47,088 bases of DNA from Chloroflexota bacterium (GTDB lineage Bacteria; Chloroflexota; Chloroflexia; JAMCWQ01). Numbering within the stretch: position 1 is the first letter of the stretch; each line of letters starts with the position of its first letter. Below, piece after piece: positions 41,171 through 47,088 of the stretch. The stretch is taken from contig JAMCWQ010000077.1 in assembly GCA_023480825.1 (NCBI GenBank), forward strand, positions 1-47,088, in the 5' to 3' direction. The notes beneath the pieces are model-generated. The model was not told the origin of the DNA and did no database searches. It worked only from the letters and a program-made list of their open reading frames with translations. The translations under genes and the position numbers were made by a program.

Positions 41171-41330
41171 GTATTTGATGAGGAGGATGCCTGAGGAACC
41201 CGGAATTGGCAGCGTGAAAGCGCATAAGAAGTCCCAGAGGGGCATTGGCGGTTATAACGCGGAGCCCGGGCTGAAAGCGGCCATGACCGCGCTAATTCTA
41301 CCGGCCCGTGGTTTCACCTGCCGCGCAGGC

Positions 41331-42491
41331 CTAGGGCGTCGTTGGGGGGTTGCACACATTGCATGGTCTATATCCCGCCGCAATTGCCTCACTTGGCCTA
41401 TCCCAACAAATGAGATGGGTTATCCTCGCCACATACCGGCACGTCGGCTCGTGATACACGTCGCTTTCTGTGCTGCCACAGACCTCATACGTGGCCGGCT
41501 CCTGAGTGGGCTGCACGGTAGGCTGTGGCGGAGGAGTCGGGACAACTGTCGGCACTTCGGTTGGGATAGCTGTCGGGACCCGAGTGGGCGCTACGGTGGG
41601 TTCCTGATTAGGGCCTCCTGCGTATCCATACCGCCAGGTGAAATAGTGGCGGCCGATGTTTCCCATCTCCACCTGCCAGCCCTCGGGATTGCCAGGCGTG
41701 TAGGTCATAACGCGCCGCTCGAACGCCTGGATGAGCACCCACTTAACTTGCCCGGCCACTTTCGCCTGTGCCCAATAGGCTTCGGTGATCGGGAAACCGG
41801 TGGCAAAGAAGGTCGGATCGAACAACCTTCCCTCCCGGAAGGCCCCGGCCTCCATCACCAGGCCGCTCGAGTTGAGAAAATCCCAAAAGACACTGGCAAC
41901 GGCGTGATCTGTTTCGGGTACATAATAAGCGGCAGTCACTCCGGCCGGGCCGCCGGCTCCCACTTGACCGCTACGGTCCACAATCTCGGTCAACTGCTCG
42001 CCGGCGGCATGCGGTGTCCTTGAAAGTAAGCCGGCGAAGGTGGCGTAGGTCGGGCCATTGGGGTCGTCAGGATCGCCCGCTACCGGAATCTGAGCGGGAG
42101 ACCTTGCTTCGAAGTTGGCATCGCCTTTCTGAAGCTGCCCGCTAATGAGCTCTTTGGCCAGCAGCCCATTGGTCACGAACCATTGACTGCTCCTATCTCC
42201 ATAGGGATTGTTGATCTCCATCCGGCTCTTGTCGAAGTAGGTGACGAGGCGGGAGCCGCCGGCAGCTTGATCATACTGTTCCTGCCGGGTGTCGAAACTG
42301 CCAGGTCCCCACATCCAGGTGCGAGATACGCTGCCCTGCTGTACGGGAAGGTCGCTACGATTCCACACATTCTCGAGGGCCGGGTCGGGCAAGGACATGG
42401 GAGCTTTCAGCGCGGCATTCGATATCGTTGGCAACAAGACTACTACGGCAATAACCAAAGGGAGAACAGTGAGAAACACCTTGCGTTTCAT
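41331..42491 (-). CDS. Secreted protein: Chloroflexi-type surface domain, Pro/Thr linker and C-terminal Ada-like Zn-binding domain
   Basis: Signal peptide MKRK+hydrophobic+SNA; RTWMWGPG...YFDKSRMEI...VTNGLL domain; PTxxPT repeats; VYHEPTC...AIAAGYRPCNVC. Confidence 0.8.
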   Translation of the reverse strand: MKRKVFLTVLPLVIAVVVLLPTISNAALKAPMSLPDPALENVWNRSDLPVQQGSVSRTWMWGPGSFDTRQEQYDQAAGGSRLVTYFDKSRMEINNPYGDRSSQWFVTNGLLAKELISGQLQKGDANFEARSPAQIPVAGDPDDPNGPTYATFAGLLSRTPHAAGEQLTEIVDRSGQVGAGGPAGVTAAYYVPETDHAVASVFWDFLNSSGLVMEAGAFREGRLFDPTFFATGFPITEAYWAQAKVAGQVKWVLIQAFERRVMTYTPGNPEGWQVEMGNIGRHYFTWRYGYAGGPNQEPTVAPTRVPTAIPTEVPTVVPTPPPQPTVQPTQEPATYEVCGSTESDVYHEPTCRYVARITHLICWDRPSEAIAAGYRPCNVCNPPTTP

Positions 42492-42880
42492 TCGACACCT
42501 CCGTTGATGTTCGGAGGGCGGCGATTAGGAACACCAGTCCGGTTCCGAAGCGCCAAGGTGACTGGCAAATCTGGGGTGCCGTCCCCTTTGACAATCTCTC
42601 AAACCACACGAACGCCTTTGCCCGCAGGCATGCTGCTGGCACAGTGGCAGCTCTGATCATGGGAAGAAATCGGAAGGATGGCGCTGGAGGAAGATTTGCT
42701 GCCACCACAGCGTCCGATAGGGATGCAGATAGTGAGTGGCGCGTTCTTTTTCAGTACAAGCCAATTAGCGCGCAGCATTCGAAGTGGGTCAATAGGCCGA
42801 AATACCTATTCCTTAATGAAGATCAAAGCGCCGCTCGCCCTGGCAACAGCTCAAGTGAGCAGCGGCGCGTGCTTCTTCCG

Positions 42881-43369: not shown

Positions 43370-44413
43370 CTATACCTGCTCCCCTCCTGCCGGCCGGCTG
43401 AACCGGGACCGGGAGCGAACGGACGATCGTGCGAGCCGGGTACCGGTGTTGTTGCCCGTCCCTGTGCCGTGCGTCCGGAAAATGGCCGCGTGCACTACGA
43501 CATCCATATAGACTAGCGCTGCTCCGGTGGCGCCTGTTCCCTCGAATCTGACGTCGTGACCCAAGGCGAGCGAGGGGAAGACTTCGCAATTGGCATCCCG
43601 TACCCTTTCCAGCAGCCTCACCGCCCGTTCGCGTCCCACGGGACCGCCTTTCTCGCCGTCGATAGCATCGAGGGAATAGCTGCGGATGAGCTTTGGCCAC
43701 AGTATGGCCGCCGTGCGCTCCTGGTCGAACAGGTCTGCGCCCGCAATATGGCCGTTCATGGCCACAATGAGCCCGGCGGCTCCCGCTACAGGGGCCAATG
43801 CCGCCTCGTAATCTTCTAGGGTTTCCCTCCGGGACCGGTAGATATCGTTCATGGCTCCGGTGCTGGACGAAACGTGCATTTCCTCCTGCTTGACGGCAAG
43901 ACTCTCCCAGATCGCCGCTTGATTAGCTGAGTGCCGTCCGGTGTTACGCAGCCCCATTCGCACCTGGGCGTCCTTCTCTCGCCTGATATCGAAATCAAGG
44001 CCTTCGCCGACTGCGAAGACATCAGATGTTTCGTGCCAACGGCCGGCTTCCACACAGGACACCGGAATGACGACTTTGTCGCCGGTGCCGACCAGGAAGC
44101 TGGCATTGACTATCCGGTTCTGCTTGCCACCGGTGATCTCCTCGCCGTCCAGCACGAGCACCATCACGTCGCCCCTATTGTGCAACACCAGTTCAGGCAC
44201 GGTGCCGCCTCCCCGCTCCCGCACGGTTACGCTTCCTTCCAGGATGGCTTCACCGAGAGTGCGGTACTCGAGCCTCGGCAGGGGATGTCCTATGCCCCTA
44301 AGGAACAGGGGGAAGACAACCATGTTCCCGTGCTCGATTCCCTCCCCGACATCCAGGGTTCTGAGCCTCTCCAAGACAGTCTGACATAGCGTTAAGTTTT
44401 CTCCGGTCTCCAT
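43370..44413 (-). CDS. ARPP-1 / DUF6569 family protein
   Basis: NMVVFPL, TVPELVLHN, DGEEITGGKQNRIVN, PVSCVEAGRW, QAAIWE and DLFD...LWPKLIRSY motifs; ATG after AAGGAG. Confidence 0.82.
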   Translation of the reverse strand: METGENLTLCQTVLERLRTLDVGEGIEHGNMVVFPLFLRGIGHPLPRLEYRTLGEAILEGSVTVRERGGGTVPELVLHNRGDVMVLVLDGEEITGGKQNRIVNASFLVGTGDKVVIPVSCVEAGRWHETSDVFAVGEGLDFDIRREKDAQVRMGLRNTGRHSANQAAIWESLAVKQEEMHVSSSTGAMNDIYRSRRETLEDYEAALAPVAGAAGLIVAMNGHIAGADLFDQERTAAILWPKLIRSYSLDAIDGEKGGPVGRERAVRLLERVRDANCEVFPSLALGHDVRFEGTGATGAALVYMDVVVHAAIFRTHGTGTGNNTGTRLARSSVRSRSRFSRPAGGEQV

Positions 44414-44794
44414 TCTTTCGTTCTCCTTTGTGGACCAAGCCAACTTCCGTTTTTCTCTGGGCTTGCTTCCAGCCATGTATTCTTCGCACCGGTCAGAAAA
44501 ACTTCTCTCCATCTATTAATACGAACCTTGGCAGGAAAACCCTTGGTAGCTTTCCCGTGCACATTGAACCAAGTGAATTGCTTCGGCAATTCGTATACAT
44601 ATGCGGGGGGATTCGAAGATTTGGTTAGCCGGATACCTTATGATGCGAGCAGACCGGCGCACAGGTGTATAATGGAAGAGGCAGTGAGAGCCCGGCCGGA
44701 ACTCTCGCGGTGGCATCTTGTGCAGGGATCCGGGGTTCTACTGGAGATACAGGTCACGATAGCATACCCGCATGAGGGGGTGACCGCCCATCAG

Positions 44795-45376
44795 ATGAAC
44801 AGTGGTGTCACCTACTCCGAGCTTTCAGCCCTGCGAACATACGGCGTCCTCTCGGATGCTCAGCTACTGCTGCTCTACAAGAACGGTGAGGCTGAGGCCA
44901 TCGGAGCGCTCTACGCGCGGCACGCCGGGCCGCTCTACCGGTTCGCTATCCGCAAAGGACTAACCCACTCCGACAGCGACGACTTCGTTCAGGAAGTCTT
45001 CGTCAAAATCATCAACTGCATCCAGGGATTCGACGCCGGAAACGCCAATAGCGAACACTGGATTCACACCGTCAAATACTCGGTGCTCTACGACTTCTGG
45101 CGGAAGCGCGGCAGGACGGACGGGAAGAACCAACAGATTCCAGAGGATGACGAGATTCCGGACGAACATAACGATCCGGAGGATGAGATCTTGGAGCAGG
45201 AGATACACGAGGCCTATAGGCGCGCTTTCCGCTCGATTCCCAAGGAAGACCAACTTGAGATTCTCCGCGGACCGGGGCGGGGTCCGGGCCGCAAGACCTG
45301 GCATGCCGCCATGGCAAGGCTCAAAGAGAGCTTTCTCGAATACTACAATGGAGTGAGGCCTGTAAGTGTCCACTAG
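44795..45376 (+). CDS. ECF-like RNA polymerase sigma factor with a degenerate sigma4 region
   Basis: SDAQLL...GEAEAIGALYARH...DDFVQEVF...W...DFWRK matches ECF sigma2; ATG after GAGGGGGTGA. Confidence 0.8.
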   Translation: MNSGVTYSELSALRTYGVLSDAQLLLLYKNGEAEAIGALYARHAGPLYRFAIRKGLTHSDSDDFVQEVFVKIINCIQGFDAGNANSEHWIHTVKYSVLYDFWRKRGRTDGKNQQIPEDDEIPDEHNDPEDEILEQEIHEAYRRAFRSIPKEDQLEILRGPGRGPGRKTWHAAMARLKESFLEYYNGVRPVSVH

Positions 45377-45956
45377 ATCGCCACACCAGCCGGACTACGA
45401 AAAGCGCAGCCTGGACCTCATCAACAAGATGAGGCGGTCGGCCGAGGCTGCCACGGAGCAACTCGGGCTACCCTCGGAGGCCAAGTACGACTTACTGGAT
45501 TCCATGTACGCTTCCCCTGCTAATCTCTCACTTGTCCCCGCTCTAGAGCGGGGCGCAGAGACCAATCCTCGCCTATACGAGGTAATCATGGGCTTTCTCG
45601 CCAGCTATATGCAGAACCGGATAAAGGACTTCCAGTCTCTCTGGCAAGACCTGCGGCGGGCGGAAGGGCTGGCATTGGCACCGATGCTCGCTCTAGAGGA
45701 CGTGCATTACTGCATTGCCGCCCCGCCAGACATGGAAGAACAACCACGTCTGGCCATGCCGAGGCTCTCCACCCGCCGCCGGTCGGAGCTCCTCGGCATT
45801 GTAGACGTGATGACGTGGTGGCTTGAACAGGAAGCTGAGACGGGGAAGCCGGTTGAGGAGAAAGCCATCGTCGATTATGCTACGCAGCAAGGCTGTTCGC
45901 CCAAGCTAGCCCGCTCAATGGCTGAGTACCTGGCGAAACTGAAGACAGGCGGCTAG
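45366..45956 (+). CDS. Hypothetical protein overlapping the sigma factor stop (anti-sigma/co-factor position)
   Basis: 196-aa ORF with GTG start after GGAGTGAGG, 11-nt overlap with the sigma gene and no TM helix. Confidence 0.75.
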   Translation: MSTRSPHQPDYEKRSLDLINKMRRSAEAATEQLGLPSEAKYDLLDSMYASPANLSLVPALERGAETNPRLYEVIMGFLASYMQNRIKDFQSLWQDLRRAEGLALAPMLALEDVHYCIAAPPDMEEQPRLAMPRLSTRRRSELLGIVDVMTWWLEQEAETGKPVEEKAIVDYATQQGCSPKLARSMAEYLAKLKTGG

Positions 45957-46112: not shown

Positions 46113-47088
46113 ATGGCCACGACCGGTGACGGACCAGAGGAGGTCGATGACCTCGGGCTGGACCAGAAGGCGCTCGAGGCCCTCATTGTAGATAACCCGG
46201 ATCTGGAACGGCTGGAGGCTCTTCTCGGCCAGTTCAACATATTTGAAGCCATCGGGGCGGTGCGGCAGGAAGTTCGCCACTCCAATTTCCTCTCGTTTCT
46301 GCTGAACCCTCGTGAGACGCACGGACTGGGCGATGAGTTTGCTAAGCGGTTCCTTCAGAGGGTGCTTCTAACGAGCCCACAGCCGGAAATGCCCTTGAGA
46401 CCCATAGACCTCGACCTATGGTCCCTTGACGGACTAGTTATTCAGCGGGAGTGGGAAAACGTCGACATTCTCCTGCTTGATGAGTCCCATAAGTTGGCCG
46501 CGATTATCGAGAATAAGATCGACAGCACCGAGCGCCCAGGCCAGTTACACAGGTATTGGAACAGCACTAGCCAGCATTACCCCGGCTGGAGTATTGTAGG
46601 TCTCTACCTCACACCTAGTGGTGACGCCCCCGAGTGTGACATGTATTTGGCAGTTGGCTATAGCGTCGTGTGTGCCACACTAGAAAACCTGGTTGGCAGC
46701 CGGGCAGCATCGATGGGGCCTGATGTGCTCACGATGCTCCGGCACTATACCCAGATGCTCAGGAGGCATATCGTGGGAGAGTCTGAGATAGACTTGTTAT
46801 GCCGACAAATCTACCGAAAGCACCAACGAGCGCTGGACATAGTCTTCGAGCGCCGCCCTGATAGGCAGTCCGAGGTGCGGGTGATGGTAGAGGAGCTTAT
46901 CAGGGCAACACCCGGGCTGGTTCTCGACAGGACGTCGAAGACCTATATCGACTTCGGCGTCAGTGCCTGGGATGTCCCAGCCCTACTGGTAGGGAAGGGC
47001 TATACGATTTCTGGGCGGATACTGACATTCGAGTTCGCTAACAACGTGGACAACTTGAAGCTTCGTCTCGTCATTGGCCCTGGGCCGA
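46113..47088 (+). CDS. PD-(D/E)XK nuclease family protein (PDDEXK_4-like), partial (runs off window end)
   Basis: Manual translation: FNIFEAIG...QEVRHSNFLSFLLNPRETHGLG...REWENVDILL...IIENKIDS...GQLHRY...LYLTP. Open to the edge, so absent from the ORF track. Confidence 0.88.
   Translation, partial: MATTGDGPEEVDDLGLDQKALEALIVDNPDLERLEALLGQFNIFEAIGAVRQEVRHSNFLSFLLNPRETHGLGDEFAKRFLQRVLLTSPQPEMPLRPIDLDLWSLDGLVIQREWENVDILLLDESHKLAAIIENKIDSTERPGQLHRYWNSTSQHYPGWSIVGLYLTPSGDAPECDMYLAVGYSVVCATLENLVGSRAASMGPDVLTMLRHYTQMLRRHIVGESEIDLLCRQIYRKHQRALDIVFERRPDRQSEVRVMVEELIRATPGLVLDRTSKTYIDFGVSAWDVPALLVGKGYTISGRILTFEFANNVDNLKLRLVIGPGP

Follow-up and report, generated by a model that had tools for sequence, protein, structure and literature searches.

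Can a sigma factor of the extracytoplasmic function (ECF) type still work when the part of its sigma4 domain that holds the first helix of the DNA-reading helix-turn-helix (HTH) is missing? This question is raised by a gene in a stretch of 47,088 nucleotides from a Chloroflexota bacterium (contig JAMCWQ010000077.1 of assembly GCA_023480825.1), which we refer to as the window. To our knowledge, every sigma70-family factor with a studied structure uses an HTH to read the -35 element, including SigI, which does so with a different domain. We found that the gap in the window protein is shared by a family of diverged relatives, and that a conserved partner gene follows the sigma gene in every related locus with context. 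That the first HTH helix is lost throughout a lineage, with the remainder of sigma4 strongly constrained, in turn raises the question of how small a sigma4 can be and still hold on to the beta-flap and place RNA polymerase on a promoter.

A 15-residue part of sigma4 is missing

The sigma gene lies in an open reading frame (ORF) spanning 44528-45376 on the forward strand. An alternative in-frame ATG at 44672 would yield a 234-residue form (P0001). Residue 4 of the closest homologue (P0003) aligns with residue 3 of the 193-residue product, which supports the start at 44795. The gene and its parts are as follows.

44513 to 44794, forward strand: intergenic region, flanked by the sigma gene and the divergent ARPP-1 gene and presumed to hold the sigma promoter
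44795 to 45376, forward strand: ECF-type sigma factor gene, 193 residues, ATG start at 44795
44909 to 45118, forward strand: sigma2 domain, residues 39-108, intact (PF04542, AlphaFold2)
45176 to 45268, forward strand: first sigma4 helices, residues 128-158, equivalent to region 4.1, reading ..EIHEAYRRAFRSIPKEDQLEILR (hhalign, AlphaFold2)
45269 to 45295, forward strand: GPGRGPGRK loop, residues 159-167, in place of about 15 canonical columns that include the first HTH helix
45296 to 45355, forward strand: C-terminal helix, residues 168-187, equivalent to the sigma4 recognition helix (hhalign, AlphaFold2)

Sigma70_r2 was the sole Pfam match in the protein, which has no sigma1 or sigma3 regions. 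The match covers positions 1-71 of the 71 in PF04542 (E-value 7.7e-11), in agreement with an earlier note on this DNA, written from the letters alone, that had called sigma2 intact. The same note had described the residues encoded at 45212-45330, and translation in the ORF frame gives AYRRAFRSIPKEDQLEILRGPGRGPGRKTWHAAMARLKES, exactly as it had them.

About 15 residues of sigma4 are missing in frame from the window sigma. When we aligned the profile of the family described below (44 sequences) to 31 canonical ECFs with hhalign (probability 99.9), 15 canonical columns remained without a partner, in runs of 1, 13 and 1, which bears out the earlier estimate of about 14 lost residues. The unmatched columns take in the last part of helix 2 as well as the first helix of the HTH ('gls~~EIA~il'). 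Homology to canonical sigma4 is present on both flanks of the gap. Residues 128-158 pair with 'AL~~Lp~Eqrev~~L' of canonical ECFs. GPGRGPGRK lines up with the turn of the HTH and the first positions of the recognition helix. The C-terminal helix pairs with 'tVKsr~~rA~~~LR~~l', after which a short tail reaches the stop codon.

Other profile collections reflected the same gap. The NCBIfam superfamily model TIGR02937 passed its cut-off (48.4 bits, cut-off 42.9) over model positions 1-125 of 165 only, and none of the equivalog or subfamily models in NCBIfam reached its own cut-off for the sigma. Among the 68 NCBIfam ECF models that match, the best 25 stop aligning at or before ..QLEILR, and ECF sigma sequences from the PDB likewise cease aligning there. 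We considered whether an HTH might be hidden in another frame or behind a frameshift, and rejected this because three-frame translations of 45180-45560 show none.

The loop had also been described as an imperfect 12-nucleotide tandem repeat at 45269-45292 that encodes GPGR twice. The units GGACCGGGGCGG and GGTCCGGGCCGC agree at 9 of 12 positions, and Tandem Repeats Finder returned no repeat at a score of at least 30. The doublet is more aptly treated as a protein motif. As family members share it in their protein sequences, we regard it as an old motif and reject a recent DNA tandem duplication as its origin.

The short sigma4 is shared by a diverged family

Decay had been named as the alternative explanation for the gap, with the question of whether homologues share the deletion as the means of deciding. 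A word-index (k-mer) search returned nothing beyond the window's own protein and a single canonical ECF. An exhaustive phmmer search of 1.84 billion representatives gave 4793 matches at an E-value of at most 1e-3, the best 150 of which we examined. All 24 of the best non-self matches (P0003-P0026, 166-264 residues) align end to end and carry the short module, for which an alignment of the best phmmer relatives gives the consensus LSxxDRxEIxRGxGRGPGRKxWHxAxxRxR. A hidden Markov model (HMM) of the module was positive in 43 of 152 proteins, the window's own included, and 15 of these positives lay outside the training set of the HMM. In total, the short module is found in at least 42 diverged cluster representatives besides the window protein. 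In an alignment of 44 sequences the family members are 23-41% identical to the window protein, and the module consensus reads LSxxDRxELxRGRGRGPGRKxWHxAxxRFR.

No stretch of the alignment is better conserved than the loop. Residues 159-167 have the highest mean information content at 2.71 bits, as compared to 2.18 in sigma2 and about 1.75 in the helices on either side, although these loop figures are partly circular because members beyond the first 28 were picked by the module HMM (the first 24 were picked by whole-protein rank). The loop consensus is G-x-G-R-G-x-G-R, with G159 in 28 of 43 sequences, G161 in 37 of 41, and R162, G163, G165 and R166 in 34, 43, 25 and 32 of 44, respectively. In the C-terminal helix, W169 is present in 34, A172 in 43 and R175 in 32 of the 44 sequences. 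At an E-value of at most 0.01, the Pfam models Sigma70_r4 and r4_2 (PF04545 and PF08281) matched 0 of 44 family members versus 31 of 31 canonical ECF controls. Sigma70_r2 matched 40 of 44 family members and all 31 controls.

We built a FastTree phylogeny from sigma2 columns alone (136 rows, 90 columns). Its rows were 43 family sequences (the window sigma and 42 stored members, without the sigma of locus L003) and 93 non-family matches of 150-260 residues; P0029 and matches of other lengths were left out. The short-sigma4 label requires 3 changes on this tree, as compared to a mean of 36.8 after shuffling, and 0 of 500 shuffles were as low. As judged from these sequences, the family is a coherent lineage that clusters on sigma2 alone. 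Most forks of the tree are unresolved, and a single origin of the short sigma4 is allowed but not shown by it.

Given that the module is common to all 24 of the best relatives and to at least 42 in total, and that the loop is the most conserved stretch, we reject decay. The shared deletion points to selection, and the window sigma is very probably a conserved functional variant.

Variation in the C-terminal module was seen within the family. P0009 has two nearly identical complete C-terminal modules in tandem, and P0019 and P0020 have a degenerate second C-terminal module without the Gly-Arg loop.

Cysteines in this part of the protein covary (alignment A4, window numbering). Cys183 is present in 24 family sequences, 23 of which also have Cys140 (16) or Cys143 (7), and of the 20 sequences without Cys183, 19 lack both. 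In about half of the family, this pattern suggests a disulfide or metal bridge that joins the first sigma4 helix and the C-terminal one. The window protein has A140, R143 and Y183 at these positions.

Predicted structure of the sigma

An AlphaFold2 model made with the family alignment as input had a mean predicted local distance difference test (pLDDT) score of 88.3. The sigma2 helices scored 89-98, and the linker at residues 110-127 was of low confidence. The C-terminal part, with pLDDT of 91-97 in its blocks, was predicted as a helix at 128-147, a second at 150-158, a non-helical loop at 159-166 (GPGRGPGR) and a third helix at 167-187. The earlier note had asked whether structure prediction would show an intact HTH, and the model has none, with a loop at 159-166. 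In the model, therefore, sigma4 is a three-helix remnant with a Gly/Arg/Pro loop at the site of the first HTH helix. A Foldseek search with the model returned ECF sigma factors (9m9e_F, 6jbq_F, 8z6g_B and 1or7_B) at E-values of about 3e-4 to 1e-3, with template modelling scores of only 0.35-0.45, as expected for two domains that are free in their relative orientation.

Distribution of the family

The family is rare, with its at least 42 representatives found among the best 150 of 4793 matches in 1.84 billion proteins. Where the organism of a member is named, it is from the Chloroflexota. In 185,579 species genomes, the strict motif GRGPGR[KTN]xW[HKW] occurred in 134 stretches, 3 of which encode relatives: L003, from a metagenome-assembled genome (MAG) of the Ktedonobacteraceae, and L004 and L005, both from Chloroflexia MAGs. 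The RecA protein of the window is 76-78% identical to that of Thermomicrobiales MAGs and 73% identical to that of a Chloroflexales MAG, in line with a genome of the Chloroflexota.

Searching 400 other genomes of the same phylum (401 with G000) with the family profile returned generic ECFs only and no family member; this tally includes the unpublished genomes G038, G173, G145, G272 and G227. The best match in this survey scored 90 bits and ended at about model position 144-160, as compared to 213 bits over positions 7-177 for the window sigma. P0003 was not found in the genome-contig collection, and a degenerate DNA pattern for PGRGTGRxxW encoded the module in none of the matches listed (at least 120 loci). 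We considered a phage origin and dropped it, as the motif scan of viral contigs matched 601 stretches, none of which encodes a relative. One weak metagenome locus (L006) matches residues 24-149 only and was dropped as a non-member.

A partner gene follows the sigma gene

The gene downstream of the sigma gene, which we refer to as the partner, overlaps the sigma stop codon by 11 nucleotides with its GTG start at 45366.

45366 to 45956, forward strand: partner gene, 196 residues, GTG start, soluble all-alpha product
45366 to 45515, forward strand: conserved N-terminal module of the partner, residues 1-50 (4-locus alignment)

K13 and R14 lie upstream of the first internal Met and never vary in the 4-locus alignments, in support of the GTG start. 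In all 4 loci with context (the window, L003, L004 and L005), the gene next downstream has this N-terminus, about 50 residues in length; given that L004 and L005 are close kin, the loci amount to about 3 independent lineages. The motif reads xxFxKRAxxRIxxMxxAAEDLxxALxLPPEAKxELxSLL. A profile search of 5.8 billion proteins with the N-terminus found 6 proteins including the window's own, and a scan for more loci with the partner motif returned only a chance match inside an unrelated protein of 1158 residues (L125).

These six proteins come in two sizes. Four are 552-567 residues long (those of L003-L005 and P0156), and each is strongly hydrophobic at about residues 104-124 (KD19 2.3-2.7). Beta-propeller Pfam matches were found in long partners, namely PQQ_2 in L004 and L005 (1.8e-28 and 2.9e-26) and WD40/PD40-type in L003. 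The other two are the window partner and P0158, a soluble protein of 161 residues that is 52% identical to it. The window partner itself had no passing match in Pfam, NCBIfam or PADLOC, and the ESM Atlas gave only unnamed clusters scoring below 0.9. AlphaFold2 predicted it to be all-alpha at a mean pLDDT of 68, with N-terminal helices at residues 8-32 and 39-46.

Membrane anti-sigma factors have a cytoplasmic N-terminal module, one membrane helix and a sensor on the outside, and are encoded just after the sigma gene. Most relatives of the partner are membrane-anchored with an extracytoplasmic beta-propeller, a layout that fits an anti-sigma factor rather than a co-factor bound at the promoter. 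The two-helix module of about 50 residues at the N-terminus of the partner would then most likely be where a cognate anti-sigma factor binds its sigma.

Conserved blocks upstream of related sigma genes

In L003-L005, the blocks AGGTTTTT and CGTAGTACT are conserved upstream of the sigma gene in otherwise diverged sequence. They are arranged as AGGTTTTT-N10-CGTAGTACT with a fixed GG-N15-CGTA spacing, and in L003 they lie at about position 2050-2080. ECF promoters have the layout GGAAC-N16/17-CGT, and the spacing of the blocks is 4-5 bp shorter. The blocks come from three related loci and may reflect shared ancestry only.

With this footprint as the only hint, we considered a tentative and rather unlikely reading in which the Arg/Gly loop is AT-hook-like and replaces the major-groove HTH, so that together with the basic helix it would read the narrow minor groove of the T/A-tract upstream. 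If true, the minor-groove loop would recognize the -35 element in a new way and across a shorter spacer, and a loop of this kind would make a compact, orthogonal part for promoter recognition. Less likely still is that the N-terminal helices of the partner complete the missing HTH in trans.

Proposed mechanism and its alternatives

The reading we favour, with a probability of about 0.5 for the mechanism as a whole, is that of an ECF (group IV) sigma factor with a minimal sigma4 and a cognate anti-sigma partner. The sequences establish the conserved deletion, the lineage and the gene pair; binding of polymerase and DNA by the minimal sigma4 and the anti-sigma role of the partner are inferred. 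Sigma4 is reduced to three helices that keep region 4.1 and the equivalent of the recognition helix, and the conserved G-x-G-R-G-x-G-R-K loop stands in for about 15 residues from the end of helix 2 and the first helix of the HTH. Sigma2 would still bind core RNA polymerase and the -10 element. Three features point this way: r2 matches over its full length, the acidic motif of region 2.2 is kept (family consensus EDAED, window SDSDD), and W89, D100 and R103 are conserved. The retained 4.1 helices would dock on the beta-flap. The basic C-terminal helix (R166, K167, R175 and R177, with A172 structural) and the Arg/Gly loop would contact upstream promoter DNA in an altered manner. The sigma gene is translationally coupled to the downstream partner gene, whose product would keep the sigma inactive until a signal arrives, at the membrane in most relatives and in soluble form in the window genome.

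Several results weigh against this reading. The window partner and P0158 have neither a membrane helix nor a sensor, and the anti-sigma interpretation therefore rests on their longer relatives. No known anti-sigma domain, such as those of class I (ASD/ZAS) factors (e.g., zf-HC2 or RskA), was found at a Pfam E-value of at most 1 in 4 partner proteins, and the fold predicted for the window partner had no PDB match at a Foldseek E-value of at most 0.001, with a model pLDDT of only 68. The sigma genes of L004 (5959-6460) and L005 (5938-6482) are split by a frameshift, and that of L005 has an additional in-frame stop at the family's conserved Trp. These breaks may be read errors or real decay into pseudogenes; the loop motif and the partner gene are intact in both loci despite the split, and the sigma gene is intact in L003 and the window. 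A three-helix sigma4 without the helix that positions the HTH might fail to engage the major groove altogether. On the DNA side, an alignment of 44513-44794 showed no clear counterpart of the blocks upstream of the L003-L005 sigma genes. The pattern GGTTTTT-N8-12-CGTAG was not enriched in the genomes of L003, L004 and L005, with 4, 1 and 3 matches, respectively, versus 8, 8 and 4 for the reversed control. Regulon and upstream-alignment searches gave no target promoter.

The alternative that survives best, although unlikely and not favoured here, takes up the suggestion in the earlier note that the sigma may not itself read -35 DNA. With its minimal sigma4 unable to do so, the sigma would need the downstream partner (as a split sigma4) or another factor for promoter targeting or flap binding. 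Partner dependence of this kind is known from phage T4 gp55, which works together with gp33 and the sliding clamp. All family members lack the first HTH helix, and a partner with a conserved two-helix N-terminus is adjacent in all loci with context and translationally coupled in the window. The window partner and P0158 are soluble and could reach DNA. There is also a precedent for -35 recognition taken over by a partner in the available text of 10.1101/2025.06.10.658880. However, 4 of 6 partner homologues cross the membrane once and have a large extracytoplasmic beta-propeller, which fits sequestration rather than a role at the promoter. Conservation of the recognition-helix equivalent and its basic residues would also be unexpected if contact with DNA had been abandoned.

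It is considerably less probable that the protein is a sigma mimic, a decoy like the sigma-like domain of PhyR that titrates the partner or another regulator. The degenerate sigma4 and the conserved adjacent partner of unknown family would suit a decoy. Against this, the protein has only 193 residues with no receiver or other signalling domain, and its sigma2 is well conserved across the family, with the acidic region-2.2 motif and the W..N...D..R block kept. Models of PhyR sigma-like domains matched 0 of 44 family members versus 4 of 31 canonical controls.

That the gene is a functionless ECF, decaying or produced by an in-frame deletion or assembly error in one MAG, is scarcely credible. In its favour, the source MAG is 51% complete and split into 111 contigs, no close relative turned up in the k-mer search, and two related loci have frameshifted sigma genes. 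However, the short module recurs in at least 42 diverged representatives with a near-invariant loop, their identities of 23-41% exclude redundant copies of a single contaminant, the window sigma ORF is intact, its model is confident and the sigma2-only lineage is coherent.

Comparison with known systems

Canonical ECFs such as E. coli sigmaE with RseA and M. tuberculosis SigE and SigH (PDB 1or7, 6jbq and 9m9e) share with the window sigma a small size, a two-domain layout and homologous sigma2 and region 4.1. Canonical ECF and anti-sigma pairs likewise have the partner gene after the sigma gene, and the partner's relatives resemble them in having an N-terminal module, a membrane helix and an outside sensor. 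Unlike canonical ECFs, about 15 sigma4 residues are replaced by a G-R-rich loop and Pfam sigma4 models fail. The N-terminal module of the partner resembles no known anti-sigma domain, which adds a putative sigma-binding module of about 50 residues outside the described families. By sequence, the window sigma is a descendant of ECF sigma factors that presumably works like them, but fails the feature of a recognizable sigma4 HTH.

The core of an AT-hook is R-G-R-P. The loop is similar in being a short Gly/Arg/Pro stretch flanked by basic residues (family consensus RGRGRGPGRK), but its order is G-R-G-P-G-R and it lies between two helices of a folded domain. Mimics of the PhyR type have a degenerate sigma-like domain fused to a receiver, whereas the window sigma has no receiver.

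Entry into ECF classification 2.0 (Casas-Pastor et al. 2021) requires both a Pfam sigma2 and a Pfam sigma4 match, according to the accessible text of PMC7826278. Because its members have no Pfam sigma4 match, the family falls outside the classification as described in that text. Filters of this kind hide variants with a short sigma4. The same portion of PMC7826278 names SigI among the 'ECF-like' factors excluded for a missing sigma4 match.

SigI of the Bacilli and Clostridia is similar to the window sigma in having a sigma2 without a Pfam-recognizable sigma4, and it is paired with a membrane anti-sigma factor, RsgI. As given in the available part of PMC10575876, the C-terminal domain of SigI has no sequence homology to sigma4, still contains an HTH, and reads an A-tract via the minor groove; SigI promoters have this A-tract plus CGWA, which the layout of the L003-L005 footprint recalls. 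SigI is the closest precedent for a non-canonical reader of the -35 element. In contrast to SigI, the C-terminal module of the window family is a shortened true sigma4 without an HTH, which aligns to canonical sigma4 on both sides of the gap.

The dCas12f-associated sigmaE is also an ECF sigma, and its -35 recognition is largely replaced by a partner, as far as the text available for 10.1101/2025.06.10.658880 describes it. That protein has an extra C-terminal domain that binds dCas12f, whereas the window sigma4 is shortened and not extended. Pfam and PADLOC scans found no Cas gene near the window sigma. A full-text literature search, with most subscription journals outside its coverage, gave no description of the family, and the accessible text of a review of non-canonical ECFs (PMC8999054) mentions no group with a short sigma4.

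Genomic surroundings

Most of the window is ordinary chromosome, with genes for H+-PPase, SecDF, GltX, RecA/RecX, CTP synthase, the ATP synthase operon, a MurA-like protein, MreB and FtsH. The last 6 kb differ from the rest and hold unmatched ORFs, an ARPP-1 protein, the sigma, its partner and a PD-(D/E)XK protein. The features around the sigma and partner genes are as follows.

41175 to 42656, both strands: overlapping long ORFs of 282, 386 and 157 residues, no Pfam match
43370 to 44512, reverse strand: ARPP-1 domain protein (PF20208, E-value 2.4e-84), divergent from the sigma gene
46113 to 47087, forward strand: PD-(D/E)XK_4 protein (Pfam E-value 6e-24), running off the window end

None of the ORFs at 41175-42656 matched Pfam, and the two that were also checked with PADLOC gave no match. 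The ARPP-1 protein had no match in NCBIfam or PADLOC. We considered a link of the sigma to ARPP-1, the nuclease or the upstream ORFs and rejected it, as BLAST found no homologue of any of these in L003-L006. Given their absence from the other loci, we regard them as neighbours in this genome only. In L003, the large ORFs other than the sigma and partner are unrelated genes, as judged without a Pfam scan. The PD-(D/E)XK_4 protein of the window matches PDC-S26, a candidate single-gene defence family in PADLOC, at 1.1e-109.

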